Of a stretch of 64,000 nucleotides of DNA, positions 7,226 to 63,620 are shown in pieces (within the stretch, counting starts at the first letter, position 1; every line of letters begins with the position of its first letter). The stretch is from Thermoproteota archaeon (GTDB lineage: Archaea > Thermoproteota > EX4484-205 > JAAOZP01): assembly GCA_049700215.1 (NCBI GenBank), contig JBNAVT010000002.1, positions 45,507 to 109,506 on the forward strand, given 5' to 3'. The notes beneath the pieces were generated by a model. That model worked only from the letters and a program-made list of their open reading frames with translations. It searched no databases and was not told the DNA's origin. The position numbers and the translations under genes are program-made.

Positions 7226-8974
7226 ATGGGGGCTGGAGGAAAACACGGTAATTTTAAGGTTGCGGTCTACTGCACGGTCCGTGACGTGAATGAAATGGCT
7301 GATTCAACCTGGCTGGAAAACAGTTTCAAGGTTTTGAGCAGGAGCATTCCTTTAGACAAGGTTTATCTTGAGACCTTCGGCAGCGGTGCCTTGGCGGATA
7401 GAGGCTTAATGCAGAAGGTTAAGTCTTTTTTCAAAGATAAGGGTGTCGAGGTGTCCGGGGGAATAGCCACCAATGGTCCACGCGGCCAATCTCTCTGCTA
7501 CTCGAAGCCCGGCGACAGAGAAATGCTTGAAAACGTTGTCAAGTATACTGCTGAATTGTTCGATGAGATTATCCTGGATGACTGGCTCTTCACAAGCTGC
7601 AAGTGCGAAGCATGCGCGCGCGCTAAAGCTGGACCGAGTACCGTTTGAAGACTATGGAGGATGTTGCGCAAAACATCATCTTTAAAACAGCCAAGGAGGT
7701 TAACCCCAAGGTTAGGCTGATAATAAAATATCCAAACTGGTATGAGCATTACCAGTTTCTCGGCTACAGTCTCGATTTCGAATCAAGAGTCTTCGACATG
7801 GTTTACACGGGCACTGAGACGAGAGACTCAGAGTATACTCATCAACACCTTCAGGAGTATCAGAGCTACGCTATAATGAGGTTTCTGGAGAACGTTAAGC
7901 CGGGTTTCAACGGCGGCGGCTGGATTGATCCTTTTGCCAAGAGGCGCGCGCGCTCTTGACCGTTACGCGGAGCAGATAAGGCTGACGCTCTTCGCTAAAG
8001 CCAGGGAGGTTACGCTCTTCTGCTACAGCGCCCTGCTCGAGTCCTTTAAGCAAGATGGGGCAAGAATTCCTATAAGCATCCTTGCACCAGTAGTCGGAAC
8101 CATCTTCGAGGAGATGGATTTTCTTGTCGGGAAACTCGGCAACCCTTGTGGTGTTAAAAGCTATAAGCCGTTCAACTCGTCCGGCGAGGATTTTCTTCAA
8201 AACTACATAGGCATGCTAGGAATTCCTGTCGAGATGACTCCGAGTTTCCCCGAGGCCAGTGAAACCGTGTTCCTAACCGAGTGTGCCAAGTTTGACGGCG
8301 GGATAATGGGGAAAATCAAGAAGCATCTTGTTAAAGGCGGGGACGTTATTATTACATCCGGTTTTCTGAGGGCGATGCAGGATGAAGTGGTTAGAGAGCT
8401 GGCTGAGGTCAAATACACCGGTGGAAAAATACTTGTCAAAGACTTCTCACTAGGCTTTTTCCTTTTCGAAGATGTTTACCACTCGGATGTGGAAATACTT
8501 ATCCCCCATATCAAATACCCGACTAACGATGTTTGGGAGGTCATTACGTGTTTAAGCAGGGGCAACGGATACCCGTTGCTGATGCTCATGAACTACGGGA
8601 GGGGAACACTATACCTACTTACAATACCGGATAACTTTAACGACCTATACCATCTCCCACCCACTGTTTTGAACAGTATTAGAAGAATCTTCTCGAAGAA
8701 TTTGAAAATAAGCCTTGAAGGACCAAGCAGGGTCTGCATTTTCCTTTACGACAACGATGCTTTAATCCTTCATTCATTCCTGCCTCATCCCTCTAGAGTC
8801 AGCGTTGTGGTTAAGGGCAAGGGTTTAAAGATGCGTGAACTCTCCTCGGGCGAGATACTTAACGGCTTCGAGAGGAAATGGGGGATGGTTTTGAAAGAAG
8901 TATTGAAACCGTGTTCCCGGTTTACTTGGCGTCGTCTTCCTACAGTGCTTTCAGGGTTGAATAATTATCTTTGA
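7226..8974 (+). pseudogene. Putative glycoside-hydrolase-like protein in three or more frames
   Basis: ORFs 7226..7648, 7645..7959 and 7925..8974 read as one protein (ILDDWLFTSCKC...WTEYRLK...GGWIDPF...LDRYAEQ). Shifts lie beside (GC)5 runs at 7614 and 7944, and probably at ~8878. Confidence 0.6.
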
Positions 8975-9010
8975 AAAGTTTAAACCAGTTTAAAACTGGA
9001 GTGTTTCAGG

Positions 9011-9613
9011 ATGAACGCGTTTAAGCAGAATGAGCGGTTGGGCAGGGGGGTTAACATACTGGGTTACGACCCGGTTTGGAAAAACAGGTCTATGGCAAGA
9101 ATGAGGAGCGAGCATTTTAGGCTGATAGGGAGCGTCGGCTTCAACAGCGTACGCATCGCTCTCCACCCTTTTCGCGACGGGGCTATGGGTTGGGGAAACC
9201 GGCTTTCGGAAGAGTGGCTTGAAACATTGGAATGGGCGGTTGAACAGGCTCTTGGAAACTGGCTTATGCCGATAATCGATTTCCACGAGTTTATAATCAT
9301 GGGGAGGGATCCGTCTGGAAACAGGGATAGGCTTCTCGCCTTCTGGGATCAGATTGGTAGACTCTACAGTAATTATCCTGACGGAGTGGTTTTCGAGCTT
9401 CTAAACGAGCCCAATAGGGAGCTTACGCCTGAGCTTTGGAACCGTCTTCTCGCCGAGATCCTTAAAACAGTGCGCAAGACTAACCCGGATAGGACTGTGA
9501 TAATAGGCCCAGCCGTCTGGAACAGCATAACCGGCCTTGATAAGCTGGTTCTCCCGGAGGAAGACAGGAATATAATTGTAGCGCGCACTCACGTTTTGGT
9601 CAAACGCCTTTAA
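9011..9613 (+). pseudogene. GH5 endoglucanase, C-terminally truncated
   Basis: LGRGVN and ELLNEPN are present. Similarity to the intact GH5 paralog stops at NIIV (GCGCGC 9581), so the nucleophile GEFG half is missing. Confidence 0.85.
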
Positions 9614-9776
9614 AAATTTGGAGTAGCAACCTTGAGGAAATTATTGCTCTAAGCTTGTATGAGCACCCTCTACTTAAGGTTAAGCGCGCGCTATTTGTAT
9701 TGAATGTTAATCATCTCGTCTGTATATCTAGACGAAACTTAAATTCTTGCCTCGGAAAAGGGTTTTGGGCAGGTTG

Positions 9777-11513: not shown

Positions 11514-11993
11514 CGTTTTTCCTTAAGCCTATATATTTGTTTCCCTATGCTTTCTGCAAGCGTGTTGTTCAACGTTTTCACGCGTGCCCGAACCGTTTCC
11601 ACTTAAGGCTGGTTTCACGTTTTCCCCGCCTATGGTTCTCCGATTTAAATTACTTATATCATTGAGTAGCAGTAATTCGACTTAGCGCGCTGTATTCGAG
11701 CAAAAAAGTATTGGTAGAGCAGGCGAGCCTGATCCAGAACGGACTTTGATCCTTTCTATTTCGTGAAAGAACATTACAGGAAACAGAGGTTGGTTGAGCG
11801 AAGACGCTGAAGCCTCCAGACAAAGAATGTTTACGGGATGGGTTGCACATCTCCATTTTTACTCCTGGCCGCGGGCGGGTTACTTACGTAGAGTATGTGA
11901 AGCCTTAACAATAATGGGAATCAGGAAAAGCGTAGCGCGCACTATAATCTTTGCAGGATTAAAATATTTGTTCTCTAAAGGGGTTTTATGGGG

Positions 11994-15018: not shown

Positions 15019-15296
15019 GCCTTAAAAACATATTTTTCAAAATCGCTGGAGACGCTTCTGTAATTGGGACTCTGCCTCCCTGTTAAAGGTTAAGCCTTTT
15101 TAAGACGCGCGTAAGCTTTTTAGCACTCCGTTTCCCTGTGGAACGAGGTTTTCCCCGGCTTCAAACCGGTTTTTGCATGGCGGAGCCCTATTTGGCTTCA
15201 GGCGCCTTTTCCAGAGGGCTTTATAAACAGGCGTAACCTTAATATTCACCCTTTTAGCGAATGAGCATACTGCAGGCAGGGGTCAAGGAATAAGAA

Positions 15297-15698: not shown

Positions 15699-15953
15699 TT
15701 AGCGCGCGAATACTAAATATTTGGCGCATAATAAGCCGCCTCCTACGTTTAGTCTTGAGACGTAGCTCGAGGATTAGATTAGCGCGCGTCTTTTTGGTAC
15801 TCCCCTGTTCTGATAGATATTTCCTAGATTATCAATTCCTAATAAGTGCACGCGCTGTTGTTAAAGCCAAAAACTAGCTTTGTGGCTTAATTCTTGGGCT
15901 TTGCCACAATCATGTTAAGATTTTCCACTAGCGCGCGCGCTAAAGCAAAAAAC

Positions 15954-15997: not shown

Positions 15998-18628
15998 ATG
16001 AACATATGCTCCATGGATTTTGGAAAATATGTTGCAGTATTGACCCTTCTAGCAACAGTAGCGCTTACCCAGCTGACGATGCCTGCTTTCGCTCAGCAAG
16101 TGCCAAACGGTGGTTGGCTGGATGAAATCGTTTTCTTCAAAGAAAGCGATGCAAGCAAGATGTTCGACATGATAGAGAAGGGTGAGGCGCATGAATGGCA
16201 GTGGACGGCCCCTGTAACTCTTATTGACAGGATAAAGGCTTCTGATAAGGTTGGATATGTTTCCTCATCAGGAATCTTTTATGTGCTCGATGTGAATCCG
16301 TGTCCGTTTAGAAGCGGCTTTAACCCGTTTGTAAACGCGAAAATGAGAGAAGCGTTAAACTACATCGTGGATAGAGAGTATCTTGCTTACACCATTATGA
16401 AGGGTGCTGGGAGGCCGAAGTATACCATACTTGTCTCCAGTTTTCCGGATTATGGTCAGGTTATAGATGTTGCTAAAATAATTGAAAGCAAGTACAGGTT
16501 TAATCTCGATGCCGCTAAGGAGATAATCTACAAGGAAATGGCTGATATGGGGGCTGTTCTCAAAGATGGGAAATGGTACTATGAAAACAAGGTTGTCACT
16601 ATAAAATTCATCATAAGAATTGAAGATGCGAGGAGAGATATTGGTGATTTCATAGCTTCACAGCTTGAAAAGCTTGGTTTCATCGTAGACAGGCAGTATA
16701 AACCAGCATCGGAGGCCTTCCCCATTAGGTATGCTACTGACGCGCGCGATGGATTATGGCACCTCTACACCGGCGGGTATGAAGCAGGCTTCGACCAATC
16801 CGGAGACTTTTGGGGCTTCTTTGCAGGTGCCTACATAGAAACGGGTGCCGTCCATGACCCAGTCTTTTCAGAAATTGCTAGAAGGCTTTCCACGGCTGAC
16901 TATACTTCTTTAGAGGAGAAAATCAGCCTAATGAAGAAAGCATTGTTAATGTCGGTGGAAGACTCAACCTACGTCGGATTGGCTGACAGGCTTTCAATAT
17001 TCATGGTTTCAAAGGATGTGGTGGCAGCATACCATCTTAGCGCCGGACCTTGGAGAATGCCGTGGAGCAGAACTGTTAGGCTTAAGGACAGAGTTGGCGG
17101 AACGATAAAAGTGGGTGAACAGGATCTTCTCGTAGAGGAGATGAATCCTGTTGCACTCGGCGGATGGGTCTGGGATATGGCTGTCTACATGCCGACTCAA
17201 GACTACGGATTCATCGAGAATCCTTACACGGTTGCATTAATCCCATTGAGAGTTAAGGAGTACAGTGTTGAAGTGACTCAAGGAATCGCGATTAAACAAA
17301 CGCCGGAAGTTAAAACGGTTGACCAAGTAAGAGTTCCTTCTGACGCTATTGCCGCATGGGATGCTGTAAACAAGAAGTATGTCAATGTCGGGGAGAACAA
17401 GTATGCTAAAGCCAAGGTGACTTTAGTGTACGACTCTCCCCTCGGTAAATATCACGATGGTACGGACATAACTTTAGCAGACTTCATGTTCTGGTTCGCC
17501 CTTTCCTTTGAAAGGACAAGTAGTTCCAGCAAGATTTACGACGAGTCTGCTGTACCCGGATTCATAGCCACAATGCGGCAATTCATAGGTTTCAAAGTTA
17601 TTCGTAGCAACCCGGTGACTGTGGAAGTCTATGTTAACATGACTCACGTCGAACCGACTCGTCTCGCTGACTGGGCTGCTCAACGCTTCACGCTATCGGG
17701 ATTTCCGTACTTCCCGTGGCACGACCTTGCTGTTGCAATTCTCGCTAGACAGGATGGAAAGCTTGGTTTCAGCGCTCTTGAAGCTCGGTCTCTTGGATGT
17801 GAAAGAGTCAATTTCATGTATGGTCCAAGCATGGCAATACTAAACGAGTATCTTGATAAAGCGATAAAGGAAAAATACGTGCCTGAATGGATAAAGGATT
17901 ATGTTACTCCAGATGAAGCAGTGGCAAGATACCAGAAGCTTAAAGAGTTCTACAACAAATATAAGCACTTCTGGGTTGGTTGCGGGCCGTACTATTTATA
18001 CTCCACTGATCCTGTGGGGAAGGTTGCGGTGTTAAAGGCTTTCAGAGAATACGTGTATAAGGCTGACAAATTTGATTGGCTGCTAAAGTCATCTACTCCT
18101 GAAGCCTCTTTAAAGGTTCCTGAAAAGATTGTTCCAGGCATTGAGGCAAATATTACCGTAACCATCAGTTCAATGGGAGAACCTTATCCAAGAAGCAATA
18201 TAGAGAAGGTCATGTATCTCATAACAGATCCAGCAGGCAACATGCTTTTAAGCGGTATTGCGAGAGAAACTGCTACCGAAGGACTTTACCAAATAAGGCT
18301 TAACGGGACTGAAACTTCAAAACTGCCTCCTGGCACGCATACGGTAACCGTATATGCGTTCAGCAATATTGTCGCAGTCCCGGGAAGTGGAGAAGCAACT
18401 ATCGCAGTTATACCGCCTGCAAGCTACATAACGCTGGAGCTGAATAGGGTTAGGCAAGAGATGGAGGCCAGGCTGTCCGCAATAGAAGCCTTGAACACTC
18501 AGGTCTCCAATTTATCGTCTGAAGTAAACTCGTTAAAGAGTACTTTAAACATGGCTGTAGGGATAGGGGTTGTTGCGATAATAATTGCCGTAGTGGCAGT
18601 AGTCCTTAGTATTAGAAAGAAGCGATGA
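15998..18628 (+). CDS. Family-5 (oligopeptide/oligosaccharide) ABC substrate-binding protein, archaeal type
   Basis: Signal peptide, NPF..MREALNYIVDR, YHDGTDITLAD and GPY motifs. The C-terminus has a beta domain, a coiled coil and a TM anchor. Confidence 0.88.
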   Translation: MNICSMDFGKYVAVLTLLATVALTQLTMPAFAQQVPNGGWLDEIVFFKESDASKMFDMIEKGEAHEWQWTAPVTLIDRIKASDKVGYVSSSGIFYVLDVNPCPFRSGFNPFVNAKMREALNYIVDREYLAYTIMKGAGRPKYTILVSSFPDYGQVIDVAKIIESKYRFNLDAAKEIIYKEMADMGAVLKDGKWYYENKVVTIKFIIRIEDARRDIGDFIASQLEKLGFIVDRQYKPASEAFPIRYATDARDGLWHLYTGGYEAGFDQSGDFWGFFAGAYIETGAVHDPVFSEIARRLSTADYTSLEEKISLMKKALLMSVEDSTYVGLADRLSIFMVSKDVVAAYHLSAGPWRMPWSRTVRLKDRVGGTIKVGEQDLLVEEMNPVALGGWVWDMAVYMPTQDYGFIENPYTVALIPLRVKEYSVEVTQGIAIKQTPEVKTVDQVRVPSDAIAAWDAVNKKYVNVGENKYAKAKVTLVYDSPLGKYHDGTDITLADFMFWFALSFERTSSSSKIYDESAVPGFIATMRQFIGFKVIRSNPVTVEVYVNMTHVEPTRLADWAAQRFTLSGFPYFPWHDLAVAILARQDGKLGFSALEARSLGCERVNFMYGPSMAILNEYLDKAIKEKYVPEWIKDYVTPDEAVARYQKLKEFYNKYKHFWVGCGPYYLYSTDPVGKVAVLKAFREYVYKADKFDWLLKSSTPEASLKVPEKIVPGIEANITVTISSMGEPYPRSNIEKVMYLITDPAGNMLLSGIARETATEGLYQIRLNGTETSKLPPGTHTVTVYAFSNIVAVPGSGEATIAVIPPASYITLELNRVRQEMEARLSAIEALNTQVSNLSSEVNSLKSTLNMAVGIGVVAIIIAVVAVVLSIRKKR

Positions 18629-23324: not shown

Positions 23325-24159
23325 GAGCATGTTTCAAAACCCCTTCTTCCTCCCATTCGCCCGCTTGTAGCATATCAGCGCGCACGCCAAGTTCAGGAAC
23401 GCCTGGTATGTACACTGCAACCTCTCGTACCTGACCTTGAGCCTCCGGTACTGGTTGATCCACGCCTGCGCCCTCTCCACAGGCCAGAGCTTCCTATACC
23501 TCCTCGGCCTCCGCCTCCTGTTCAGCAGGGGGATTATGCCCCTCTTCCTTAGTTCCCTCCTCAGCGGCTCCGAGTCGTACGCCTTGTCTCCCTTGAGCTT
23601 TAGCGGCCTTCCCACTCCATGCCTTATCGGAGGTATCGCGTCGACCAGCCTCAGGGCTACTGTAGAGTCGTGCGCGTTCGCTCCTGTAACTATTGCAGCG
23701 AGAGGGAGCCCCCTCGAGTTGGCTATGACGTGCCTCTTCGTGCCGTTCTTGGCCCTGTCCGTCGGATTGGGGCCTGTCGAGCGCCCCCTTTTAGAGCCTG
23801 CACAGGAGAGCTGTCTATCATCGCAAGCCTCATGCTTGGCTCGGCCCTATCGAGCATCTCCTTCCAGACCCTCTTCCATATGCCCTTTCGCTGCCATTCT
23901 CTAAGCCTCCTCCAGCAGCTAGGTCCGGAACTGTACTCCTTTGGGAGGGCATTCCAGGGGCAGCCGTTTAAGAGCACGTAGAGTATTCCGAGCATCGCTG
24001 TCCTGTTCGGCACAGGTGGCCTGCCGGGTGTTCCAGGGGGCTTCTGCTTCGGAAGCATGGGTTCTATTATCTCCCAAAGATCGTCCGTCAGAACCTTCTC
24101 GGGTCTAGCCATGGGGAGAGGAGGTCAGAAGGCTTGGATAAGGGTTTTGAAACACGCTC
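23325..24159 (-). mobile_element. IS5-family insertion sequence (IS427/IS1031-like, 835 bp)
   Basis: TIRs GAGCATGTTTCAAAACCC / GGGTTTTGAAACACGCTC (1 mismatch), with a TTA duplication at 23322-23324 and 24160-24162. It has a two-ORF DDE transposase. Confidence 0.92.
23334..24112 (-). CDS. IS5 transposase, orfA/orfB joined by a -1 frameshift at AAAAGGGGG (23784-23792)
   Basis: orfA has LTDDLW, GCPW and IDSS. The -1 frame reads GRSTGPNPTDRAKNGTKRH...GDKAYD...VERAQAW..YRRL. Confidence 0.88.
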
Positions 24160-52324: not shown

Positions 52325-52495
52325 CCGTTGAACTTCGGATTCAGGCTGATTGCCCTGGCTATCGCCACCCTTTGTCTCTGTCCGCCTGACAATTGGTGCG
52401 CATACTTATTCATAAAGTACTCTGGGGGAGTTAATGCAACCAGGTGCAGAAGCTCAACCACCTTACTCCTTATTTCGCTCTCATTCGCACGCGCG
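52325..52495 (-). pseudogene. Internal fragment of an oligopeptide ABC ATPase
   Basis: [26 protein letters not shown] with no Walker A. It starts at a CG-repeat cluster. Confidence 0.8.
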
Positions 52496-52587: not shown

Positions 52588-54063
52588 TTACCCAGATAAA
52601 TTCTTAACCGCCTTTCTTTCTATCTCTGAAAGCTGTTCAATAACCTGCTTGTCAATAACTGGCTCCGGAGGATAATTCTCCCTAATAATCCTGTTTAAGG
52701 CATCCTGGGCTTTCTTAAGCAGGTCTCTGCAACCTTTCTTCTCCCAGCCTATCCAATCATCCCTGTTGAAGAGGTTCGGATACCAGAGTTCCCCACGCAT
52801 TTTCCTCAAGGTGTGTTGCTCCCCTAGGAAGCTTCCGCCTACTCCGACTCTTTTAATCACTTCAAGCGCTAAAGTCTCCTTGTTTACTTCAAACCCTTTA
52901 AGAATACGGTTGACATAGCTGAGCCACTCGTTGTCGATTATAAGCTGCTCGAGGCTCGCTCCCTGGTCTGCTCCAACTATCCCCTGTTGACCTATGCCCT
53001 CCGCCCCCGCCGCCAAAACCAGAGCAGTGCTCACCGCCTTCTCAAAGCCTGCTTGAAAGTCTGGAATGTTTGAATCAGTCAGAGCCACGTTTGCGAAGCA
53101 GCTTAACCCGAGTTCTCTAGCCACTTGTATCCCTGCCAGGGATGCTAGCGTGTTTTCAGGCGCTCCGAAGGAGCATAGGGCAGTCCTCTGGTCTAACACG
53201 TGTATCGACGTTGAGAAGCCGATGGGAGAATCAGGGTTGAGAAGATTGACCAGCACTATGCCCGCCAGGACCTCGGCTGCATGCAGGCTCAACGCGCCAG
53301 CCAGTGTTACTGGGGCAGTGCCTCCCAGGAGGCTCATAGAGCCTGACGCGCTTATGGGAAGCCCATACTTAGCCATCTCCATAAGAATCTCTATAGCGTG
53401 GTGTGAAAGCTGAAGCGGGCTCGTAGGCTCCGCCCCATAGCCGATAATCTTCTTCCTTAGCTCATCCTCTCCCCCGGCAACAGCCTTAGCCATATCCAGA
53501 ATATGCCTGCAGGATTCGATGGAGTATATCCAGGCGTAAAACGGTTTACGCGAATACGTGAAGAGAAGCCTATGCTCCCTCACGTCCGCTATCCTCACAG
53601 GCACGTCGCTGGGCACGACGAAGGGGGATACAACACTCACGTTTTCAAGCTCGTTGCCGACTGTTATCGATTTTACACAATCCTCAGTCCTCCCTGGTCG
53701 GCGTTCCATCCTACTGTAATCCACGAGTTGAATCTCCAATCCCATGGTGGCCTTTATGCTTCCGTCTCCGAAGTAGACAGCGTCACCCTGGGGAGGCTCA
53801 ACAATATACTGCTTAGGAGCTTTTTTAAGACAGTCTAGAATAAGCTCTCTGGGAAGCTTAGCCACCTCGCTCCTGTAATCGATAATCGCCCCATGCTCCT
53901 TAAGCATCTCTAGAGCGCCCCTATGCCTGTATGCAAAACCAACTTCTTCCAGTATTTCCAGCGCGCCCTCCTTTACTGCTTCAACCCCTTCTCTGGGAAG
54001 CAGCTCAAGCCTCTTGTTGAAAACCGGCCTCATTCTCAACCACCCGGATACATAACCATCCAT
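52588..54063 (-). CDS. Trimethylamine methyltransferase (MttB) family, non-pyrrolysine
   Basis: ILEEVG, SPL, GGTAPVTLAG, GAPE, D.QAGFEK and SLEQL.IDNE motifs. There is no in-frame TAG. Confidence 0.9.
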   Translation of the reverse strand: MDGYVSGWLRMRPVFNKRLELLPREGVEAVKEGALEILEEVGFAYRHRGALEMLKEHGAIIDYRSEVAKLPRELILDCLKKAPKQYIVEPPQGDAVYFGDGSIKATMGLEIQLVDYSRMERRPGRTEDCVKSITVGNELENVSVVSPFVVPSDVPVRIADVREHRLLFTYSRKPFYAWIYSIESCRHILDMAKAVAGGEDELRKKIIGYGAEPTSPLQLSHHAIEILMEMAKYGLPISASGSMSLLGGTAPVTLAGALSLHAAEVLAGIVLVNLLNPDSPIGFSTSIHVLDQRTALCSFGAPENTLASLAGIQVARELGLSCFANVALTDSNIPDFQAGFEKAVSTALVLAAGAEGIGQQGIVGADQGASLEQLIIDNEWLSYVNRILKGFEVNKETLALEVIKRVGVGGSFLGEQHTLRKMRGELWYPNLFNRDDWIGWEKKGCRDLLKKAQDALNRIIRENYPPEPVIDKQVIEQLSEIERKAVKNLSG

Positions 54064-54113: not shown

Positions 54114-55276
54114 CTAAACATATTTTTCAGCAGCAGAGGAGGCTATCCTCGCCCACTCCCATAGGCGTTGAGGCTGGTACCTAACGGTGCTAATGTCCTT
54201 CATATGGATCTCCATCACGCAGTTAAACCTCCTCGCCTTCCCAAGCTTCTCCTCCATGTCTCTGCGCACTTCCTCCGGGTTCCAACTCGACTCAGCCAGC
54301 ACAGCGGGATTAGGCTTCCAAGCGAATATGAACTCGTCACCCACGTTTTCAACAGCCTTGTCGAATCTATGAAGGGGCTCATAGAGATCCTGCGCAGCCT
54401 GGGTATGTTCCTCCTCAAAACGTCAACCTTATGGTGGAGAGGCTCGCAGCACCCATAGTAGTTCAACCCCCATTTCTCATACCAATGTTTCTCATGCTTC
54501 AACGCAAACTCCTCATGCATAGCAGGAGATACTGCTGAAAAAGCCTGTGCCGCTCCAACCCCCCAAAGCCTCGTGGGAGAGTCGCGCAGCAATCCGAGTT
54601 TCTCATACTGGTCCAGCCGGTGGAGCCAAGCGTCAACCATCCTCTCGGCAAGCCTATGCACATACCCTGGCCTACGATGCATATCTATAAGGATCTCCCT
54701 AACCCCGGTCAGCATAACGATCTCATCCCAGGGGGCGAACCAGAAGGCGCTGACCCCACGCTTCTCAACAGGCAGAACCCCGTCGAAAACCTCGCAAAGC
54801 ATCTCGAAATCCTCCTCAGCCCTTTCTTCGTCGAAAAACACTCTCGGCATCCGGATCTTCTCAACGTCTTCTTCAGACTTGATTTGAGCATGGTAACGGT
54901 GGGAAACTACAGGATTCTTCTCATCAGTCTTAACAATATCCTCCTTAACACGGATGCCTATGTCAGTGTCAGCAACATAGTCCTGAAGCGGCTGCTCCAC
55001 CACAGGCTCCAAACCTAGGCTGCTGCTGAAACGGGGATCATCCACCAGCACCCCCAGTCCATGCCTCCACTTATAGATCAAGCGTCTAAGCCTCTCCTCG
55101 TATCTCCTGCATAACGGATGCCTAGTCCTCAGCGTTAGCTCATTGTTAACATTCATCTCGTGCCACGGGATCTCGTAAACATAGACCGGAGGCTTCACCA
55201 TCTCCAGGTTGATCACCCTTTTTTGCAGCTCAAAATACTCCTCGTTAACGGGTGAGGCTGCGATTTCAGCGCGCGC
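54114..55276 (-). pseudogene. UroD/MtaA-like barrel protein, 5'-truncated and frameshifted (~54363)
   Basis: EIPWHE, VSPAMHEEF, YYGCCEPL, ISMSPF and WKPNP motifs. The two ORFs are joined by a 1-nt shift. Confidence 0.7.
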
Positions 55277-55839
55277 TATTCCGCTGCAAACCATCTATCG
55301 TCTACAGCCTCCTCTTCTAAGCCCACACCTCCGCTGGAAAAGACTTTAAAAAACATTACTGGGAAAGTCATACAATGAGACCCGGTTTTTCAAGCACCGT
55401 ATGTTCTGGAAACGGACAGGTGTGTTTCTTAATATATTTCACTTCGTAGATGGCGCGGGGGAGGTGGTAGTACGCGCGCTAATGCATAGTATCCGTGCTA
55501 ATAGCTATGGCTTTCTCGCCACCTGAGGAAACGTAGAGGCTTCTAGCATATAAAGGGTCATGCACACCTTTAAAAAAGGTGTGGCGCGCTAAAACGACCA
55601 ACTATTTCTACAATCATCTCGAGCATCAACCAGTCTCAGGCTGGAGATACGACGTGACTGATCAAGGCATCGGAAGTTAAAAAAAGGAAAATGATTTGAA
55701 ACTCAATGAAAGAAACCGAATGATAAGCATTCGTGCCTACAGCATTCTTCACTAAACAAGCTTGATTTATGCAGATAGCGAGTCTAGAAGTGACACGGTT
55801 AGAATTAGAGTTCAGCCAGCATAGAGGTGAGAATAAGAG

Positions 55840-56361
55840 CTACCTTATTCTTCTAACAGCCTCCTTGATTATCGGGTCCTCAATCCAGTAGTAGCCCTCC
55901 TTCTCCTCCACTATCATCGCGGAGGAAAGAGTTTCCAAGACTATTTAGCGCGCGCGAGGGGTGAAGCAGGGCTCGGCTCTAAGAACCTGCGCAGGATTCC
56001 AACGTATGATCCTGAGAAAACTATCCTTATACCTCTGTATTCATCCCAAACACTTTTCAAAACTTTTAAAAAATAATGTGAATACACTTCTTGCATCTCG
56101 TCTAAAGCAATAACCCTATCCTTGACGCGTGAAAAAAACGTCTTCCAAGACTCTAGTCCACTTCCTGTACAAACTTCAAGTCTAGGCCGATCTCTCCGAG
56201 CTTAAACCCGGATTCAGCCGCCAACTTCCTAACCACGTCCTCAATACTCCTAGCACCCATCAGATTTACGTAAAACCCATTGTTCTCATTGGAGAAAGTT
56301 TTAAGCGGGCTCGTCTTACCCGTCATCCTCTTCCCGACGACAGCAACCCATAAGCGCGCGC
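55840..56361 (-). pseudogene. Archaeal ATPase (AAA+wHTH) remnant with an internal deletion
   Basis: Manual translation gives Walker A VVGKRMTGKTS, Walker B IALDEMQ, FSGSYVG..SPL and then directly VLETLSSAMIVEEKEGYYWIEDPII. Confidence 0.8.
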
Positions 56362-58037: not shown

Positions 58038-58243
58038 TTAGCGGACTGTATCCTGCGGGCTTAATAAAGCAGCATACGGTATAGCCGATTTAGCCAATTC
58101 TATGCAAACCCTGACCCTCCTACCGTTGTTTCTCACCTGCTTGCCGAGCCAGTTGACTATCGAGCTGAGCGGCAGGTATTTGGCTTCCCAGCAGCCTTTT
58201 CTAAGCAGCTTGCTCACCACGTCAGCCTTGATCTCGCGCGCGC
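58038..58243 (-). pseudogene. Fragment of a small basic hypothetical protein
   Basis: REIKADVVSKLLRKGCWEAKYLP... begins at the (CG)n run at 58235. Confidence 0.4.
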
Positions 58244-58266: not shown

Positions 58267-58616
58267 ATGCCCGAGGAACTCTACATAGAAAGGAATACGA
58301 GTCGATCCTGCTCAAATGCTTCGGAAGCTCCCCCAAGCTCAGAATAATAGACTTCCTATTCGACAACCCGTTGTTTGACTTCACTAAGAAGGAGATTATA
58401 GAAGCACTAGGCATGAGCAAGCAAACATTCTACAAGCATTTTACAGGCATAGAGAAAAACGGTCTAGTCAAAGTCTCAAGAAGAATAGGCAGGGCTAAAC
58501 TCTGCAGGATAAACCTGGAGAACCTAATGGTCAAAATGCTAAGAGAAAGCGAAACACAGCTCTCCCTGCAAACAGCAGAGCAGGAAGCTGAAAAGAAACA
58601 AATAGAGGTAAAATAG
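58267..58616 (+). pseudogene. Winged-helix protein, frameshifted near 58290
   Basis: FGSSPKLRIIDFLFDNPLFDFTKKEI...SKQTFYKHF...SRRIGRAKL. The upstream ATG 58267 is out of frame. Confidence 0.7.
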
Positions 58617-58663
58617 TTTTCGCGCGCGAGAGGAATCTATGCATATTCAAGACCCTATGAGAA

Positions 58664-58999: not shown

Positions 59000-59375
59000 T
59001 CCTAATAACCTTCTCGAACTTGTCAGCGAACTCAATTAGCTGTTTAACCTCCTTCTCCTCATACCTCCTCGGGAAGTATCTGGAAATTACATAAGCATCC
59101 TCAACCTTAGTGAGAATCATTATCTCCGAATCGATTAGCGACGCTAGACCCCTCCCAGACGCAGCATCATCAAGCACCCTTAACAATCTCACTATCGAGT
59201 GTGTCCGGGGATACGTTCCAGTTTTTACGAGAAGCTTGTATTTCAGAATAAGTTGAAAGAATTGCTCGACACTGAACGCTGCAAGGTCAAATTCTCTCTC
59301 CTCAAAAAGCCTCTTAGCATTCCTCAGGAAGGCATACGCTCTTTCCCTGAGAACCTCAGCCTCTTCGAATGACAA
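58992..59375 (-). CDS. HEPN domain toxin
   Basis: AAF.VEQ, PRTHSI and Y.ISRY motifs. It overlaps the MNT gene. Confidence 0.9.
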   Translation of the reverse strand: MSFEEAEVLRERAYAFLRNAKRLFEEREFDLAAFSVEQFFQLILKYKLLVKTGTYPRTHSIVRLLRVLDDAASGRGLASLIDSEIMILTKVEDAYVISRYFPRRYEEKEVKQLIEFADKFEKVIRNV

Positions 59376-59459
59376 TACGTACGCTTTTCAAGAAGCTTAA
59401 TATTTAAGTCTTAATAGAGGCTTAGAGCCTTTGCAGCGACTATTTCAATATCATTCCCA

Positions 59460-59700
59460 GTCAACTCGTTACCGCGAGAATACCACAGCGAAACACCCAC
59501 TTGAAACCACGAATCATCCCGCTTGCAGAAGCCTTAACATCCCCGGTCAGACGTACACGTCCCTTCCCTCCTCACGTGAGCATCACTGGGCTCAACCGTG
59601 CCGTCAACCCAATCCGTATGGCTCCACCCCAACCAGCCTGGACACCGAAAACAGGCGTGCCACGCTTATAGCGAGAATAACAAGATGCCTCCCGGGATTT
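59460..59700 (-). pseudogene. Degraded N-terminus of a NosD/beta-helix surface protein
   Basis: Frame-hopping translation AIRIG-DGTVEPSDAHVRREG-DVYV-TGDV resembles the IxxDGxVEPS...DVYxLTG start of such proteins. Confidence 0.35.
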
Positions 59701-60070
59701 TTCTCAATTCTGCTTTATAACCCTTGTCAACATTCAGGTTTTTACAAGGAAACACAGGCTAAGGTGCTAGGGCCTCAATTTTCTACATGCTTCCCTGCAT
59801 ATGGGATCAAGGAATTCGTAATCCTTCACGATGCTCATCATTTCAAGCGCGCGCTACAAGTCGTTTCGAGACGACTTCCCAATGTCGAAAAGCAAGTTCC
59901 GGTTCGGAACTATTAAGCTTACGGCAACCATCACCAAGCAACTTATCCCCACCCGTCCTCATCCATCACCACCCGCCCAATTTGAAACACCAAGACCCAT
60001 CCCGGAAAACCCCTGAAGAACACTGGCTCCAAAACCTTAAATACACCATCAGCCTAACGCCCAGCGAAAG

Positions 60071-62470
60071 ATGACGGCGGAAAAATCAAAGAAATACGTG
60101 CTCTGGTTCAACGAAATAGGCATCGAAGACGTTCCCCTAGTAGGAGGAAAATCAGCAAGCCTAGGAGAAATGCTGCGTAAAACAGGCGCCCCGGTGCCAA
60201 ACGGCTTCGCAACAACCGCCGAGGCCTACAGGTACTTCATAAAATACAACAATCTAGAGCAGAAAATAGCGGACATACTCAGCGAGCTGAAAGACCCCAA
60301 CGACACCAAAACACTCCAAAACATAGGGGCAAGAATACGGAGAACAATCGTCGAGGCCAAAATGCCGCCTGAAATAGAAAGCGAAATCAAAAAATACTAC
60401 ACTCAGCTCGAACAGGAAGTCAAACAGAAAAACCCGTTCGTAGCAGTAAGATCATCAGCAACAGCCGAAGACCTTCCCGACGCAAGCTTCGCAGGCCAGC
60501 AGGAAACATACCTAAACGTCTCAACACCAGAGCAAGTCGTGGAGAAGGTTAAAGAATGCTACTCAAGCCTCTTCACAGACCGAGCAATATTCTACCGCGT
60601 CCAGAAAGGATTCGACCACATGAAAGTAGCGTTATCCGCCGCAGTCCAGCTAATGGTGTACTCAAAAGCCTCAGGAGTAATGTTCACACTCGACGTTTCA
60701 AACGGGGACAGAAGCGTAGTAATGATAGAAGCAGGATACGGGCTAGGAGAATACGTAGTCCAAGGAAAAATCACACCAGACGACTACTACGTCAGAAAAA
60801 CCGACCTGCAAATCGTAAAGAAAAACATCTCAACAAAGAAAATCATGCTCACAAGAAAACCAAACGGGGGAACAGAGGAGAAAGAAGTCCCCAAAGAACT
60901 CCAAGACAAACCCGTGCTAACAGACGAGCAAATAAAAGAACTAGCCGCCTATGCGATAGAAATCGAAAACCACTACGGAAAACCAATGGACATAGAATGG
61001 GCACTCGATGAGAGAGACAACAGACTGTACATCCTACAAGCAAGACCAGAAACAGTATGGGCACTCAAAAAACCCGAAGAAGAAAAAACCGAAACAATCA
61101 CAGTCACAAAAGAGAAAGAAGTAATATGCCAAGGACTACCCGCGTCACCAGGACTAGCAGTAGGAAAAGCACATATAATTATGAGTGTCGATAAATTAGA
61201 CACATTCCAACCAGGAGAAATACTCGTCACAGAAATGACCGCACCCGAATGGGTCCCAGCAATGCGAAAAGCCGCAGCAATAGTGACAAACAGCGGGGGG
61301 CTAACTAGTCATGCTAGTATTGTATCTCGTGAACTCGGAATCCCATGCATCGTCGGAACAGCAAGCAAAGGAAAGCCCGCGACCGAAGCGATCAAAGACG
61401 GCGAGATAATAACGGTTGACTCGAAGCTCGGAGTAGTATATAGAGGTGCGTTGGCAGAAGTCGTTGAGAAAAAGGAGGAGAAAGTCGCAGTCGCGGCAGT
61501 AGCGGAATCCTACCCAGTGACAGGAACAAAGATTTACGTTAATCTAGGTGAGCCGGAGCTGGCGGAGAAGGTCGCAGCCCTGCCGGTAGACGGAGTGGGA
61601 CTAATGAGGCTCGAATTCACCTACGCCGCTGAAATCGGCGAACACCCGCTACACCTAATCGAAACAGGACACCCCGAGAAACTCGTCGACAAGCTAGCCG
61701 AAGGAATGAGAAAAGTCTGCGCCGCATTCTACCCGAGGCCAGTCGTCGTGAGACTAGTCGACTTTAAGTCAAGCGAGTACAGAGACCTCAAGGGCGGGGA
61801 AAAGTATGAGCCGGTTGAGCCGTCAGCGTTACTAGGATGGAGGGGAGCGTCAAGATACTACGATCCTAAATATTTGCCTGCTTTCAGACTAGAGCTGAGG
61901 GCAATAAAAAAGGTCCGCGAGGAATACGGGTTAAAGAATCTGTGGGTTATGATACCGTTCTGCAGAACCGAGGAGGAAATCCAGAAGGTCATGGCAATCA
62001 TGAAGGAGGAGGGGTTAGAAAGGGGGCCGGACTTCAAGCTCTGGCTCATGGCTGAGATACCTTCAAATATTTTAATAGCTGACAAGTTCAATAGATATAT
62101 AGATGGCTATTCGATCGGGAGTAACGACCTCACTATGCTTATTCTTGGAGCGGACAGGGACAACGAGACCGTTGCGAAAATCTTCGATGAGAGAAATCTC
62201 GCCGTGAAAAGAGCAATTAAATATTTAATTAAAATAGCACACTGCGATGGAAAAACAGTTTCCGTGTGTGGACAGGCACCTTCGCAGTATAGTGAGTTCA
62301 CAGAGTTTCTAGTGCGTTGTGGAATAGACTCCATTTCAATCAATCCAGATGTAGCAGTGTTCACCCGTAAACTCGTCGCATCCATTGAACAACGAATAAT
62401 GCTTGAGAAAGCGCTTGGCCAGGTTAAGGTTGACCCCGACTGGGATCTTCCTGACCCAGACGAGGAGTAA
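60071..62470 (+). CDS. ppsA: Phosphoenolpyruvate synthase
   Basis: VGGK.ASLGEM, VRSSATAED...SFAGQQET, GG.TSHA.IVSRELG and SIGSNDLT motifs. Confidence 0.96.
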   Translation: MTAEKSKKYVLWFNEIGIEDVPLVGGKSASLGEMLRKTGAPVPNGFATTAEAYRYFIKYNNLEQKIADILSELKDPNDTKTLQNIGARIRRTIVEAKMPPEIESEIKKYYTQLEQEVKQKNPFVAVRSSATAEDLPDASFAGQQETYLNVSTPEQVVEKVKECYSSLFTDRAIFYRVQKGFDHMKVALSAAVQLMVYSKASGVMFTLDVSNGDRSVVMIEAGYGLGEYVVQGKITPDDYYVRKTDLQIVKKNISTKKIMLTRKPNGGTEEKEVPKELQDKPVLTDEQIKELAAYAIEIENHYGKPMDIEWALDERDNRLYILQARPETVWALKKPEEEKTETITVTKEKEVICQGLPASPGLAVGKAHIIMSVDKLDTFQPGEILVTEMTAPEWVPAMRKAAAIVTNSGGLTSHASIVSRELGIPCIVGTASKGKPATEAIKDGEIITVDSKLGVVYRGALAEVVEKKEEKVAVAAVAESYPVTGTKIYVNLGEPELAEKVAALPVDGVGLMRLEFTYAAEIGEHPLHLIETGHPEKLVDKLAEGMRKVCAAFYPRPVVVRLVDFKSSEYRDLKGGEKYEPVEPSALLGWRGASRYYDPKYLPAFRLELRAIKKVREEYGLKNLWVMIPFCRTEEEIQKVMAIMKEEGLERGPDFKLWLMAEIPSNILIADKFNRYIDGYSIGSNDLTMLILGADRDNETVAKIFDERNLAVKRAIKYLIKIAHCDGKTVSVCGQAPSQYSEFTEFLVRCGIDSISINPDVAVFTRKLVASIEQRIMLEKALGQVKVDPDWDLPDPDEE

Positions 62471-62710
62471 TCTATCTTCTAAATATAATTACTTCCCCTT
62501 TTTGGCGCGCGCTTTGGAAGCTGCTTTTATTTTTTCAATTACCAGGTTACTTCAAATCCGAAGACCTGATATTATGGCCTTGTTTTTTCTATTAAACCAA
62601 TTCGTACCGTCAATAATTCTTCCTTCTCCTCCTCTTTCCTTCACTTTTTCCATTATTTCTTCACAGATTTTTCTAGGCCTCTTAGCATAGTCAACTCCAA
62701 GCATGAGGAA

Positions 62711-63157
62711 ATGTATCGGTGCATCCCAATAGCGCGCGCGGTTAGGGGGTTCTTTGGAACTGGAGAAGTTATGTTTGTCTCTCTAAGACCTTCGACAAGG
62801 GGAGGAGAGCTGCCCTCTCCCAAGTTAGAGAGTTTTTACAAACTGCTGGAGAAAGAAGGGTTTGAAAACGCTCACATGACTGATTTAGTTAAATGCAGAG
62901 GCCCCGTCGGGAATATTCCGGACTACCATTTTCAGAACTGCATTCCTCATCTTCTGGAAGAGATAGAGATTTTAGAGCCGAAGATGATAGTAGCAGTGGG
63001 TAAAGAGGCTCAGAAGAAACTGAAGGAAAATGAGATTCAGTGCCGATTTATTCCACACTATGCATATAGGTTTAAGAAAAGGAGGATAAGCCTAAGAAAA
63101 GCTTTGAAAGACATTAAGGAAAAACTTGAAGAAATGAAGCAATTCAAAGTCTTGTAA
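62711..63157 (+). CDS. Uracil-DNA glycosylase superfamily protein (possibly N-truncated)
   Basis: VMFVSLRPS, TDLVKC, C.PHL.EEI.IL.PK.IVAVG and IPHY motifs. Confidence 0.65.
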   Translation: MYRCIPIARAVRGFFGTGEVMFVSLRPSTRGGELPSPKLESFYKLLEKEGFENAHMTDLVKCRGPVGNIPDYHFQNCIPHLLEEIEILEPKMIVAVGKEAQKKLKENEIQCRFIPHYAYRFKKRRISLRKALKDIKEKLEEMKQFKVL

Positions 63158-63620
63158 AGAATCCGATAAAATTGAGCGCGCGCTCCATGAAAGGCCAATC
63201 TCCTCCCATGCATCACATACGATGTTTCCGTAGTTAAAAAATCTGCATTTCCTCATAAATTTTTCAGATCTAGAGGGTAGCACTAGGCTGAGTTAGACAA
63301 GACATTTTAAATAGCGCGCTAGTCACTCTATATAGAATTCCTTTAGAGAATTGGATAGTGTTGAGCTCTATTTAGCGACTGAACAAGTGAAACCTGAAAT
63401 ACTCAACATATTAGAGAGAAAGGAATCGGAATTCTAAGACTTCAGATTATTGATGATCAGCAGTGATATGTAAAAGGGATAGAATATTTCAGCAATGATT
63501 AAACTACGCTTTTTCCAGGCCTTAATTTCCTTTCGTAGCTTTTCTATTTCGGCTCTTGCTATCGAATCATGATACCCTTGAGGTGGGTGAACCATCTCGA
63601 TACTAGCGTGCTGGAGTCGC

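Follow-up and report, generated by a model that had tools for sequence, protein, structure and literature searches.

The cyanobacterial palindrome HIP1 (GCGATCGC) is reported to accompany GATC and CGATCG methyltransferases. Known filler sequences at rejoined DNA ends are random (the N nucleotides of terminal transferase), copied from nearby (polymerase-theta) or RNA-templated (telomere addition). Ogata and Miura reportedly described, in 2000, how thermophilic polymerases elongate palindromic repeats in vitro, and we know of no genome scarred by this activity. In one account, such polymerases elongate short palindromic repeats in vitro independently of primer and template (PMC13061963). The mobile GC clusters of yeast mitochondria are described as optional palindromes with AG target nucleotides, linked to indels (PMC4478555), and the (A)n-TA-(T)n palindromic microsatellites of Fusarium mitochondria are likewise described as optional and indel-linked (PMC7218506). 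Here, these systems are compared with the short alternating G-C runs in the genome of a hot-spring Thermoproteota archaeon (G000; 2,089,643 bases in 85 contigs), starting from one 64-kb stretch of it, referred to as the window.

Shape and abundance of the runs

The window contains 26 maximal alternating G/C runs of 6-10 bases between 7614 and 63319, 14 of them at least 8 bases long. This exact recount agrees in number and position with the initial annotation, and also with the gap that it placed at 23.4-52.4 kb, since no run is found from 23383 to 52490. TA directly abuts at least one end in 16 of the 26 runs, so that this feature is indeed common, with a count of 16 in place of the 15 given before. 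At a window G+C content of 48.6%, GCGCGCGC occurs 15 times, compared to a mean of 0.53 in 100 dinucleotide-preserving shuffles, none of which reaches 15 (maximum 4). The genome as a whole holds 608 alternating runs of at least 6 bases. The genome-wide k-mer count, which had been suggested as a check, reveals 678 occurrences of GCGCGCGC on both strands (339 per strand) against 23.9 (~12 per strand) expected from an order-2 Markov model. This ratio (28.4) is the highest among octamers with at least 60 occurrences, and GCGCGCGC is the most over-represented palindromic octamer of the genome.

The motif had been described as polar, a view that the genome-wide counts do not support. Maximal 8-base runs are of the form G..C in 166 cases and C..G in 10, with A...T flanks around 118 of 165 G..C 8-mers and TA...TA flanks around 35 of 165, and AGCGCGCGCT is found 118 times versus once for its reversed control. 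The flank bias is confined to positions -1 (A, 0.70) and -2 (T, 0.44), and no conservation or complementarity is seen past position 2 on either side of the runs. The unit is a symmetric, non-polar palindrome, (T)A(GC)3-5T(A). Repeat numbers of 3, 4 and 5 account for 156, 166 and 51 runs, with only 4 runs at n of at least 6, and this length distribution is not geometric. Lengths change in steps of two, and the few longest runs reach 19 bases. A few unrelated families within the phylum also show a strong asymmetry between the motif and its reversed control (35:1, 30:0 and 22:0).

The runs are also found in independently assembled DNA. A Logan contig of sequencing run X1, probably the source sample, spans 52001-62448 with no difference to the window. 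Contigs of X2, which comes from another sample and study, are identical over the runs at 55269, 55473, 55584, 55948, 59847 and 62505 (6 of the 14 examined), and an X2 contig that has 2 other letters over 63236-63653 covers the run at 63314. As the runs recur without change in independent contigs of two samples, the assembly artefact against which the initial annotation had cautioned is excluded.

The run-bearing sites in related genomes

The sites between 7 and 24 kb of the window compare as follows with the loci of related genomes (G-numbers).

7226..8974, forward strand: single gene, followed by three-frame translation, split by two runs into ORFs 7226-7648, 7645-7959 and 7925-8974
7614..7623: (GC)5; 20 ortholog bases replaced by GCGCGCGCTA (net -10), a frameshift in the split gene
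7944..7953: (GC)5; a single A replaced by CGCGCGCG (net +7), the second frameshift of the split gene
9581..9586: GCGCGC; homology to relatives stops here
9684..9691: (GC)4 within ~180 counterpart-less bases that occupy the place of ~845 bases in G009
11685..11690: TAGCGCGCT, intergenic; G010 crosses the site run-free, G006/G007 homology begins 7-9 bases later
11935..11940: GCGCGC; a 6-base gap in G010, no run in G006
15106..15111: CGCGCG; G013 crosses the site run-free (68% identity)
15702..15708: TTAGCGCGCG, 4 bases past the stop of ORF 15297-15698; the homology of 5 relatives stops 8 bases earlier
15782..15788: TTAGCGCGCG within 240 bases without counterpart in the relatives fetched
15931..15940: TA(GC)5TA upstream of an ABC-transporter operon; G007 homology begins 11 bases later
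16741..16748: CGCGCGCG within an intact gene; in-frame, same-length swap (CCTTAGG in G007, TCTTCGA in G006)
23378..23383: GCGCGC within 23245-24179, a segment without counterpart in G007 or G009

The three pieces of the split gene match no Pfam family. BLAST matches cross the site at 7614 in the loci of 9 relatives, and the run is absent from all four genomes aligned there (G009, G007, G013 and G016); neither indel of the gene is present in the aligned relatives. The flanks of the 7944 run now form a perfect palindrome of 22 bases. Further downstream, a GH5 cellulase gene (9011-9613) is truncated at profile position 190 of 272, at the run at 9581.

The second group of sites lies between 52 and 64 kb.

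52490..52495: CGCGCG; G010 homology stops 8 bases earlier
53961..53966: GCGCGC within an MttB-like gene; GCGCGT in relatives, a single substitution
55269..55276: (GC)4 in place of 47 G007/G013 bases (in frame, net -39), close to where ORF 54215-55294 starts
55473..55479: TACGCGCGCTA; G013, G007 and G009 homology stops 7-15 bases earlier
55584..55589: GCGCGCTA; G009 homology stops 2 bases short of the run end
55835..56358, reverse strand: remnant of a PF01637 ATPase gene; intact copy at G007:C23:4940-5914
55948..55956: AGCGCGCGC in place of ~377 G007 bases within the intact 324-aa PF01637 ATPase gene
56354..56361: (GC)4; AAGCCCGAG of G009/G007 changed to AAGCGCGCGC; G007 homology stops here
58235..58243: CGCGCGCGC; surrounding DNA without counterpart in the relatives' loci fetched
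58621..58628: CGCGCGCG, 5 bases past the stop of ORF 58371-58616; DNA without counterpart
59847..59854: (GC)4, filler GCGCGCT, in place of ~900 G007 bases
62505..62512: (GC)4 right after a PEP synthase gene; G006 homology stops 8 bases earlier
62732..62740: TAGCGCGCGCG, codons 8-10 of a UDG-family ORF (62711-63157); without counterpart among the fetched loci
63176..63183: (GC)4, 19 bases past the UDG-family stop codon; without counterpart among the fetched loci
63314..63319: TAGCGCGCTA; likewise without counterpart among the fetched loci; covered by a contig of the second sample, X2

The hexamer at 53961 is probably an ordinary chance occurrence. No ORF of at least 80 aa is found in 55295-56522 of the window, and the ~900 bases lost at 59847 correspond to nearly all of a second intact PF01637 ATPase gene of 341 aa (G007:C23:3220-4245). 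The ortholog alignments thus confirm the coincidence of runs with gene ends, gene starts and frameshifts, with some runs breaking genes and others forming in-frame patches. They also bear out the proposal that the runs are new sequence at DNA joints, neither microsatellite nor derived from the flanks: the orthologous sites are run-free, no window run that aligns is present whole in any relative, and between 1 and ~900 bases have been replaced (20 by 10, 1 by 8, 47 by 8, ~377 by 9 and ~900 by 7).

The same picture is obtained genome-wide from the comparison with one sister genome, G009, at an identity of 70-88% that blurs the exact positions of the joints. Among the 39 runs of at least 8 bases crossed by a G009 alignment, 36 are absent from G009 and the other 3 are one substitution off; reciprocally, none of 9 G009 runs is present in G000. 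Alignments to sister species at 81-88% identity show the runs to be the derived state, and no run of at least 8 bases is found whole in both of the two species compared. Net length changes range from -52 to +11 (excluding one alignment cut at a contig end) and include some same-length multi-base patches; a few events only insert bases (+9, +11) or lie 2-3 point changes from a near-match. At eight larger joints in G000, 261-639 G009 bases are replaced by 7-57 bases; in the reverse direction, 120-3067 bases correspond to 18-45 bases in the run-bearing genome at 11 joints in G009. The shorter allele is always in the run-bearing genome (8/8 and 11/11 cases), so that the polarity of the change can be read without an outgroup. 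At the deletion joints (8 versus G009, 2 versus G007 and 11 in reverse), the runs consist of bases absent from both flanks. One- or two-sided homology breakpoints coincide with 46 of the 274 runs of at least 8 bases, compared to 17 of 1500 positions drawn at random and 102 of 1500 drawn at random outside ORFs, in keeping with the breakpoint enrichment anticipated from the window. Origins are read here from the runs other than the 122 of 274 that have no G009 counterpart within 250 bases and a further 67 that lie away from any alignment edge.

Two earlier suggestions on how the joints arise are not supported by these alignments. Recombination between existing runs, as in a HIP-like system, is not the cause, since 7 of the 8 deleted G009 segments hold no run, ends included. 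The TA end had been taken as a fixed part of the added sequence; the sister genome already has the flanking A/T in 12 of 14 and 10 of 15 cases, and it is new in some clean joints. As it mostly pre-exists, the TA end reflects where a joint forms. Shared pre-existing bases amount to ~1 per run end, a count inflated by the gap placement of the aligner, and no target-site duplication is seen in the alignments read.

Taken together, chromosomal stretches of 1 base to ~3 kb have been lost, and alternating G-C fills the joint. On both strands this filler starts with G; it reads (GC)n on the top strand and usually has A to its left and T to its right. The events are independent and recent in several species of the genus, and occur in genes as well as between them. 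The net length change is a multiple of 3 for 22 of 30 events inside G009 ORFs, versus 9 of 31 outside ORFs, an excess indicating that selection acts on the events. Frameshifting events survive only in dispensable genes, and scars therefore accumulate in decaying accessory islands.

Possible origins of the runs

The runs are best explained as scars of a putative lineage-specific process of DNA break or gap repair, a reading to which we give roughly even chances. A break would be followed by variable resection, and a polymerase that slips or templates itself would then add G-C repeats to each retained 3' end. The ends would preferentially finish in A or TA, either pre-existing or with one extra A added. 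Because (GC)n is self-complementary, the two tails could pair in any register, and a duplex stable at hot-spring temperature (n = 3-5) would be trimmed, filled and ligated. Two G-first tails fit the G..C excess (166 versus 10) and the non-geometric distribution of n. The tailing, slippage and annealing steps are proposed by analogy with in-vitro palindrome elongation and with non-templated A addition, which could supply the extra A. Pure insertions and events of 2-3 point changes are explained equally well by other models and count against the repair-scar reading. More tentatively, and as a proposal that may well prove wrong, some hot-spring Thermoproteota would heal breaks by tailing both ends with a self-complementary G-C repeat, through which any two ends could adhere and be ligated at high temperature, a Ku-free end joining that writes A(GC)3-5T at every repair. 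We found no description in the literature of such sequence-specific mending or rearranging.

The repair reading bears on how hyperthermophilic archaea rejoin broken chromosomes without Ku, and the several hundred events recorded naturally in a single genome point to a joint whose filler is fixed and self-complementary. If true, it would imply an activity that biochemistry can test, in which 3' ends receive G-C tails and then anneal, and would provide a sequence marker to date and count breaks, deletions and gene loss in uncultured archaea. The scars would both record past breaks and drive gene loss, and mutation could suffice to produce a highly iterated palindrome, with no need for selection. 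In annotation, an ORF that stops or shifts frame at a run would have to be treated as a broken gene.

A minimal mobile palindrome, although rather unlikely, is the alternative that survives best. A ready-made (T)A(GC)nT(A) unit of ~10-12 bases would be inserted by an enzyme acting in trans or taken up at nicks or breaks, and would provoke neighbouring deletions in a second step, being fragile through Z-DNA or cruciform formation; to our knowledge, such a unit would be smaller than any mobile element described. Pure insertions are indeed seen (+9, +11, +7), and the clustering of the runs, over-dispersed with a mean of 0.87 and a variance of 1.70 per 5 kb, is expected if scars breed scars. The asymmetry in a few unrelated families (35:1, 30:0, 22:0) suits a transferable agent, and indel-linked optional palindromes have organellar precedents, as described for yeast and Fusarium (PMC4478555, PMC7218506). 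However, target bases are removed in most aligned events and not merely added to, same-length replacements occur, target-site duplications are missing from the alignments read, and 7 of the 8 deleted segments show no run at either end in the sister genome. Y1 transposase (PF01797) and reverse transcriptase were not found in any of the 17 genus genomes, the former search giving matches in control genomes. Nor do the 415 inter-run segments form a run-bounded family, with only partial, low-identity matches all-against-all, and no family is common to the run-flanked ORFs (20 of 24 scanned).

It is very improbable that the runs form a HIP-like iterated palindrome, made and kept by selection or by biased mismatch repair tied to a methyltransferase, as proposed for cyanobacterial GCGATCGC. 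The motif is the top over-represented palindromic octamer of its genome, and some sites are only 2-3 substitutions away from a near-match in the sister genome. Most events, however, are multi-base replacements or indels, and there is essentially no positional conservation between species. Long ORFs hold just 33% of the runs of at least 8 bases, compared to 87% of random positions. C5 methyltransferase (PF00145) gives no match in the motif-rich G000, G008 and G002 and matches only in the motif-free G001 and G004, while N4/N6 methylases (PF01555) match in all 17 genomes whatever the motif count. A correlation of the motif with primase-polymerase, PolX or methyltransferase genes had been suggested as a check; none of these was found to track it, and the searches for transposase, reverse transcriptase, C5 methylase, Ku, PolX and PrimPol yielded no enzyme that follows it.

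Equally little weight is given to the runs being functional, for instance as protein-binding sites, terminators or insulators selected between genes. Two thirds of the runs of at least 8 bases do lie outside long ORFs, with a density that peaks between convergent genes (2.02 per kb, versus 0.95 between divergent genes). But the runs also sit within broken genes and at deletion joints, their distance to gene starts and stops shows no peak, positional conservation is zero between species at 85% identity, and they are most frequent in islands where coding density is low (ORF coverage 0.756 versus 0.909). Finally, dinucleotide slippage, base composition or a sequencing or assembly artefact has a negligible probability: length steps of two and the few runs of up to 19 bases would fit it, but not the 15 window occurrences versus 0.53 expected, the non-geometric lengths, the 166 to 10 orientation, the mostly seedless orthologous sites with loss of flanking bases, or the identity of two samples' Logan contigs over 6 of 14 runs, with a seventh in a contig with 2 other letters.

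Comparison with known systems

The mitochondrial palindromes of yeast and Fusarium resemble the archaeal runs, in the accounts given of them, in being short, mostly intergenic and variably present between close relatives, with nearby indels or substitutions (PMC4478555, PMC7218506). Both differ in being organellar, and the yeast GC clusters are ~42 bases long, with conserved hairpin stems as described (PMC4478555). The archaeal unit has 8-12 bases, is chromosomal, replaces target bases and is found at deletion joints of up to kilobases.

Like bacterial REP/BIME sequences with their RAYT proteins, the runs are G+C-rich palindromes, present by the hundreds outside genes and commonest downstream of them, but they also occur within broken genes. 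The shortest REPs are twice as long as the archaeal unit. A REP/RAYT system was rejected, as Y1 is found in 0 of 17 genomes, the unit has 8-12 and not at least 20 bases, and there is no conserved 5' tetranucleotide beyond TA. A MITE or insertion sequence was rejected as well, with no motif-bounded repeated elements, no transposase and no target-site duplication in the alignments read, and so was a dinucleotide microsatellite, given the seed mostly missing at orthologous sites, the lost flanking bases, the 156/166/51 lengths and the 166:10 orientation.

HIP1 shares with the archaeal motif its nature as a G+C-rich palindromic octamer, by far the top over-represented word, with an abundance that varies between lineages. 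In contrast to HIP1, the motif-rich archaeal genomes yielded no C5 methylase, and the sites are multi-base fillers at indels, mostly outside ORFs, with n varying from 3 to 5. Assignment to a HIP1-like class thus agrees in abundance, whereas the searches with PF00145 and PF01555 gave no cognate methyltransferase and neither the single-base origin nor the in-gene frequency of that class was found.

The joints themselves resemble those with end-joining filler, in that a deletion joint holds extra bases foreign to both flanks and shows microhomology of 0-2 bases. The archaeal filler differs in being one fixed self-complementary repeat. The known end-joining apparatus (Ku with LigD, PolX or PrimPol) was not recovered, with Ku in 0 of 5 genomes, no PolX palm domain above the cut-off in 5 genomes and Prim-Pol only in G002 among the genomes searched, and a literature search on filler DNA in archaea returned nothing relevant. 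The in-vitro elongation of palindromes offers the parallel for the repeat itself: self-complementary repeats grow there by hairpin or slippage priming near the melting temperature, and under hot conditions (GC)n would be the stable repeat.

Abundance and anatomy of the alternating G/C runs

The window contains 26 maximal alternating G/C runs of 6-10 bases, at exactly the coordinates listed in the initial annotation, and 14 of them are at least 8 bases long. Between 23383 and 52490 no run of at least 6 bases occurs. The octamer GCGCGCGC has 15 copies, whereas dinucleotide-preserving shuffles average 0.53 and none of 100 reaches 15. A strong excess is also seen across G000, the archaeal assembly that holds the window at 45507-109506 of contig 2 (2.09 Mb, 85 contigs, 49% G+C, 94.6% complete, 16S rRNA gene absent), which bears out on a Markov background the enrichment first noticed in the window. 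The assembly carries 608 runs of at least 6 bases, and GCGCGCGC totals 678 copies over both strands where an order-2 Markov model predicts 23.9, the top observed/expected ratio among G000 octamers with at least 60 occurrences. The gene content of the window is archaeal in look (CDC48, PEP synthase, MttB-like methyltransferase), no RNA families or tRNAs were found in it, and the sequencing runs containing its sequence are labelled hot-springs metagenome.

Among maximal 8-base runs in G000, those reading G..C outnumber those reading C..G by 166 to 10. With n as the number of GC units, the G..C runs have n=3 in 156 cases, n=4 in 166 and n=5 in 51, while only 4 runs have n of at least 6. Outside a run end that starts with G, position -1 is A in 70% and position -2 is T in 44%, and the flanks further out have background composition. 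The G..C 8-mers are flanked by A...T in 118/165 cases and by TA...TA in 35/165, and flank complementarity ends at position 2. The unit is therefore a symmetric palindrome, (T)A(GC)3-5T(A), and not the polar motif originally described. Membership of the unit in a MITE, an IS or another longer repeat is ruled out by the flat flank logos outside position -2, by the end of palindromy at position 2 and by inter-run segments that form no family. No master template locus was seen at the 9 G000 runs of at least 11 bases.

The runs are present in independent contigs of two samples, which rules out an assembly artefact, a doubt raised when they were first reported. A Logan contig of sequencing run X1, possibly the source sample, matches 52001-62448 with 0 differences. 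Six runs (55269, 55473, 55584, 55948, 59847 and 62505) are matched without differences by contigs of X2, which come from another sample and study, and an X2 contig with 2 other letters over 63236-63653 includes the run at 63314. Two X2 contigs depart from the window, one by an unmatched 15-base extension behind 55643, the other by an unmatched 15-base stretch before 58260. Each of these 15-mers is the reverse complement of the other, which suggests that the intervening 2.6 kb is arranged differently in the X2 population.

G000 has a second over-represented palindrome, GTCGAC (1274 vs 387 expected on both strands, ratio 3.3), and longer forms of it, among them TCGTCGAC, are 7-fold over-represented. 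It differs from the G-C runs in placement, with 93% of copies inside long ORFs. The 8-mers TGTTGAAA, GTTGAAAA and TTGAAAAC are 5-6x over-represented, with about 600 counts each on both strands, and no longer consensus was found around TGTTGAAA.

Comparison of run-bearing sites with relatives

The genus comprises 17 species genomes, several of which are 81-88% identical to the window in DNA. The window was compared with syntenic contigs of two of them, G007 and G009, and then with 1.92 Mb of G009. All runs that can be aligned are absent whole from the orthologous sites, and none was observed unchanged in an intact ortholog. In syntenic DNA, runs of at least 8 bases number 1 in 77 kb of G007 and 0 in 58 kb of G009.

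Runs of the window in comparison with relatives
7614: GCGCGCGCTA in place of 20 bases of an intact gene, net -10 (ortholog alignment)
7944: same gene as 7614, one A replaced by CGCGCGCG, net +7 (ortholog alignment)
9581: GH5 cellulase gene truncated; homology to relatives ends
11935, 56354: small insertions or replacements
15702, 15931, 52490, 55473, 55584, 62505: homology to relatives ends 2-15 bases away
16741: in-frame replacement of six to seven bases in an intact gene
53961 (hexamer): plain point substitution
55269: (GC)4 in place of 47 bases, net -39, in frame
55948: about 377 bases replaced by AGCGCGCGC, within a PF01637-family ATPase gene intact in G007
59847: about 900 bases, nearly the whole second PF01637 ATPase gene, replaced by GCGCGCT
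Remaining runs: DNA without counterpart in the relatives' sequence compared

For sites 7614 and 7944, nine relatives give BLAST matches across both, and neither change is seen in the four or five that were aligned. The two frameshifts account for the succession of ORFs 7226-7648, 7645-7959 and 7925-8974.

The peptide ABC-transporter operon (15998-23157) is present in G007 and missing as a whole from G009, which has about 100 bases instead, and the left edge in G000 of an 8.4-kb presence/absence difference (15700-24179) lies at the run at 15702. At the end of the PEP synthase ORF 60071-62470, a stretch of ~175 bases (62293-62470) matches many separate loci per relative at 73-87% identity, with several copies in G006, G007, G009, G010 and G013; G000 contig 47 carries three partial copies. 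The stretch resembles a dispersed repeat, or a mobile piece, that has become attached to the gene's 3' end.

We classified the 608 G000 runs against G009, using 1500 random and 1500 random non-ORF positions as controls.

Positions in G000 classified against G009 (runs of at least 8 bases; random; random non-ORF)
Spanned by alignment: 39/274; 1088/1500; 691/1500
One-sided homology breakpoint: 40/274; 17/1500; 100/1500
Both sides align, G009 stretch longer: 6/274; 0/1500; 2/1500
Away from alignment edge: 67/274; 98/1500; 350/1500
No homology within 250 bases: 122/274; 297/1500; 357/1500

The association with breakpoints proposed in the initial annotation thus holds genome-wide, with 46/274 runs of at least 8 bases against 17/1500 random and 102/1500 random non-ORF positions. 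G009 lacks 36 of the 39 spanned runs, and at the remaining 3 its sequence differs by one substitution. If one alignment truncated by a contig end is set aside, the net length change ranges from -52 to +11; at several sites up to 10 bases are replaced with no change in length. Eight two-sided cases (6 runs of at least 8 bases, 2 of 7) are clean joints, where 261-639 G009 bases correspond to 7-57 G000 bases containing the run; 7/8 of the G009 segments missing from G000 are without any run. Conversely, of the 68 runs of at least 8 bases in G009, 9 are spanned by G000, and 0/9 are present there. In 11 two-sided reverse cases of all run lengths (8 with runs of at least 8 bases), G000 has 120-3067 bases where G009 has 18-45. 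The shorter allele is always in the run-bearing genome, in both directions. The events thus fall after the G000/G009 split, and both lineages have undergone the process.

Of 61 derived events with runs of at least 7 bases, 30 lie inside G009 ORFs and 31 outside. The length change is a multiple of three in 22/30 of the former against 9/31 of the latter. The events are therefore genuine mutations on which selection has acted; in-frame patches persist in live genes, frameshifts only in genes being lost. Flanks align well in 24 events; among these, G009 already has the A that precedes the run in 12/14 cases and the T that follows it in 10/15. Pre-existing run-end bases amount to about 1 on average, a figure inflated by gap placement, and at several clean joints the A is newly added (AGCGCGCG...). 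Since the flanking A/T mostly pre-exist, the joint tends to form at (T)A-ended retained strands, which overlap the filler by 0-2 bases.

Placement, distribution and enzyme candidates

Only 33% of runs of at least 8 bases (n=274) lie within long ORFs, compared to 87% of 20,000 random positions and 84-93% of other G+C-only hexamers. Run density per kb is 2.02 between convergent gene pairs, 1.24 between tandem and 0.95 between divergent ones, with no peak in the distance to gene starts or stops. Counts per 5-kb bin show clustering of the runs (mean 0.87, variance 1.70), and ORF coverage is 0.756 in the 24 bins with at least 4 runs versus 0.909 in the 235 run-free bins. Upstream of the window, positions 1-22046 of contig 2 hold 23 runs in 22 kb without synteny to the G007/G009 contigs, and a 1.8-kb non-homologous gap (27640-29455) holds 4 more; the adjoining conserved syntenic core has no run of at least 7 bases.

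Runs flank 24 ORFs in G000. The 20 that were scanned (the 4 omitted include two in the window) share no family, and belong to unrelated families or none; those represented are TPR/DUF5107, polysaccharide deacetylase, 2-hydroxyacid dehydrogenase, a Cas1 fragment, NUDIX, peptidase S49 and nucleotidyltransferase. The Cas1 fragment, a 183-aa ORF on contig 9 (51-602), corresponds to the C-terminal third only (profile 174-276 of 283) and has a G-C run at each end, making it another motif-bounded gene fragment.

Across the genus, counts of AGCGCGCGCT against the same word reversed are 118:1 in G000, 88:2 in G008, 70:1 in G002, 33:1 in G009, 32:1 in G007, 18:3 in G006 and 16:0 in G010, and seven members have 0 sites. 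The asymmetry recurs outside the genus in a few of 384 other genomes of the phylum, from two other families (35:1, 30:0, 22:0, 14:1, 10:1); both words are present in G+C-rich genomes. Each of 36 viral contig stretches has a single copy of TAGCGCGCGCGCTA per strand; none of the stretches examined has more than 3 motif sites, and enrichment is not clear. Three low-G+C viral stretches from IMG/VR (L282, L302 and L284; 37-44%, 5.5-6.6 kb) each carry 2-3 A(GC)nT sites and might belong to viruses of hosts with the process that leaves them.

No enzyme tracking the motif was found among the handful of families tried, in MAGs that are incomplete, so that absence is not proof, and whose kinship limits any correlation. 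Y1 transposase and reverse transcriptase are each found in 0/17 genus genomes. C5 methylase occurs solely in 2 motif-free genomes, N4/N6 methylase in every genus genome regardless of the motif, and Y-family polymerase in 11/17, unrelated to it. In the five genomes searched, PolX gave no match over the cut-off, Ku none, and Prim-Pol matched in G002 only. A second B-family polymerase first looked promising, with two copies in motif-rich genomes. A direct protein search places it in 7/8 genomes with at least 6 sites (missing in G007, 89% complete) and also in 4/9 genomes with at most 3, at best a phylogenetic pattern.

Origin of the runs and comparison with known systems

The genome comparisons show a mutational signature in which sequence is lost and a fixed self-complementary filler, starting with G on both strands, is put in. 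The runs initially observed are confirmed as a whole, and their reading as a scar added at DNA joints is largely supported. Polarity did not hold, nor did HIP-like recombination, given that 7/8 deleted segments are run-free. A break or gap repair route with G-C tailing, pairing and sealing has, in our judgment, an even chance of being the cause. DNA ends would be resected to a variable extent, and the retained 3' ends, often ending in A, would receive G-C repeats from a slipping or self-templating polymerase. Two such tails would then pair together and be sealed once the joint is long enough for stability at high temperature. Such a route would explain why the runs read G..C, have even lengths and span few values of n, why the loss varies, and why no element or template is seen. 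Thermophilic polymerases are reported to elongate palindromic repeats in vitro (PMC13061963), and short-tract marker acquisition from single-stranded DNA is described in Sulfolobus (PMC4471258), showing that short-patch events are not foreign to this phylum.

The main alternative is that a ready-made 10-12-base unit is inserted or captured and later provokes deletions. Pure insertions do exist, the runs are clustered and their spread over families is patchy, and organellar genomes are reported to offer precedents in optional palindromes linked to indels (PMC4478555, PMC7218506). Yet replacement predominates over insertion, the deleted segments have run-free ends, and no duplications, transposases or bounded elements were found, which makes this origin rather unlikely. 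Readings of the runs as a HIP/methylase product, a functional motif, a microsatellite or an artefact are each contradicted by one or more direct tests.

In the searches made, supplements aside, the archaeal literature describes neither a G-C repeat filler nor the GCGCGCGC palindrome. Papers retrieved for highly iterated palindromes with archaea are, by title and abstract, cyanobacterial or methodological only, the matches listed for filler DNA or deletion junctions in archaea hold nothing relevant, and the Brockarchaeota description makes no mention of palindrom-, repeat, pseudogene, GCGC or frameshift.

Compared with known systems, the run works like filler DNA at an end-joining joint, sharing only this descriptive feature; among known end-joining machinery, none of Ku, PolX and Prim-Pol tracks the motif in the genomes searched. 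It resembles the highly iterated palindrome HIP1 in looks, but differs from HIP1-like motifs in methylase, point-mutation origin and genic location, and it lacks the features tested for REP/RAYT, MITE/IS and microsatellites. Taken together, the phenomenon sits with iterated short palindromes tied to indels, the nearest described being the optional organellar palindromes as reported in PMC4478555 and PMC7218506, and the probability that a new kind of process lies behind it is substantial.
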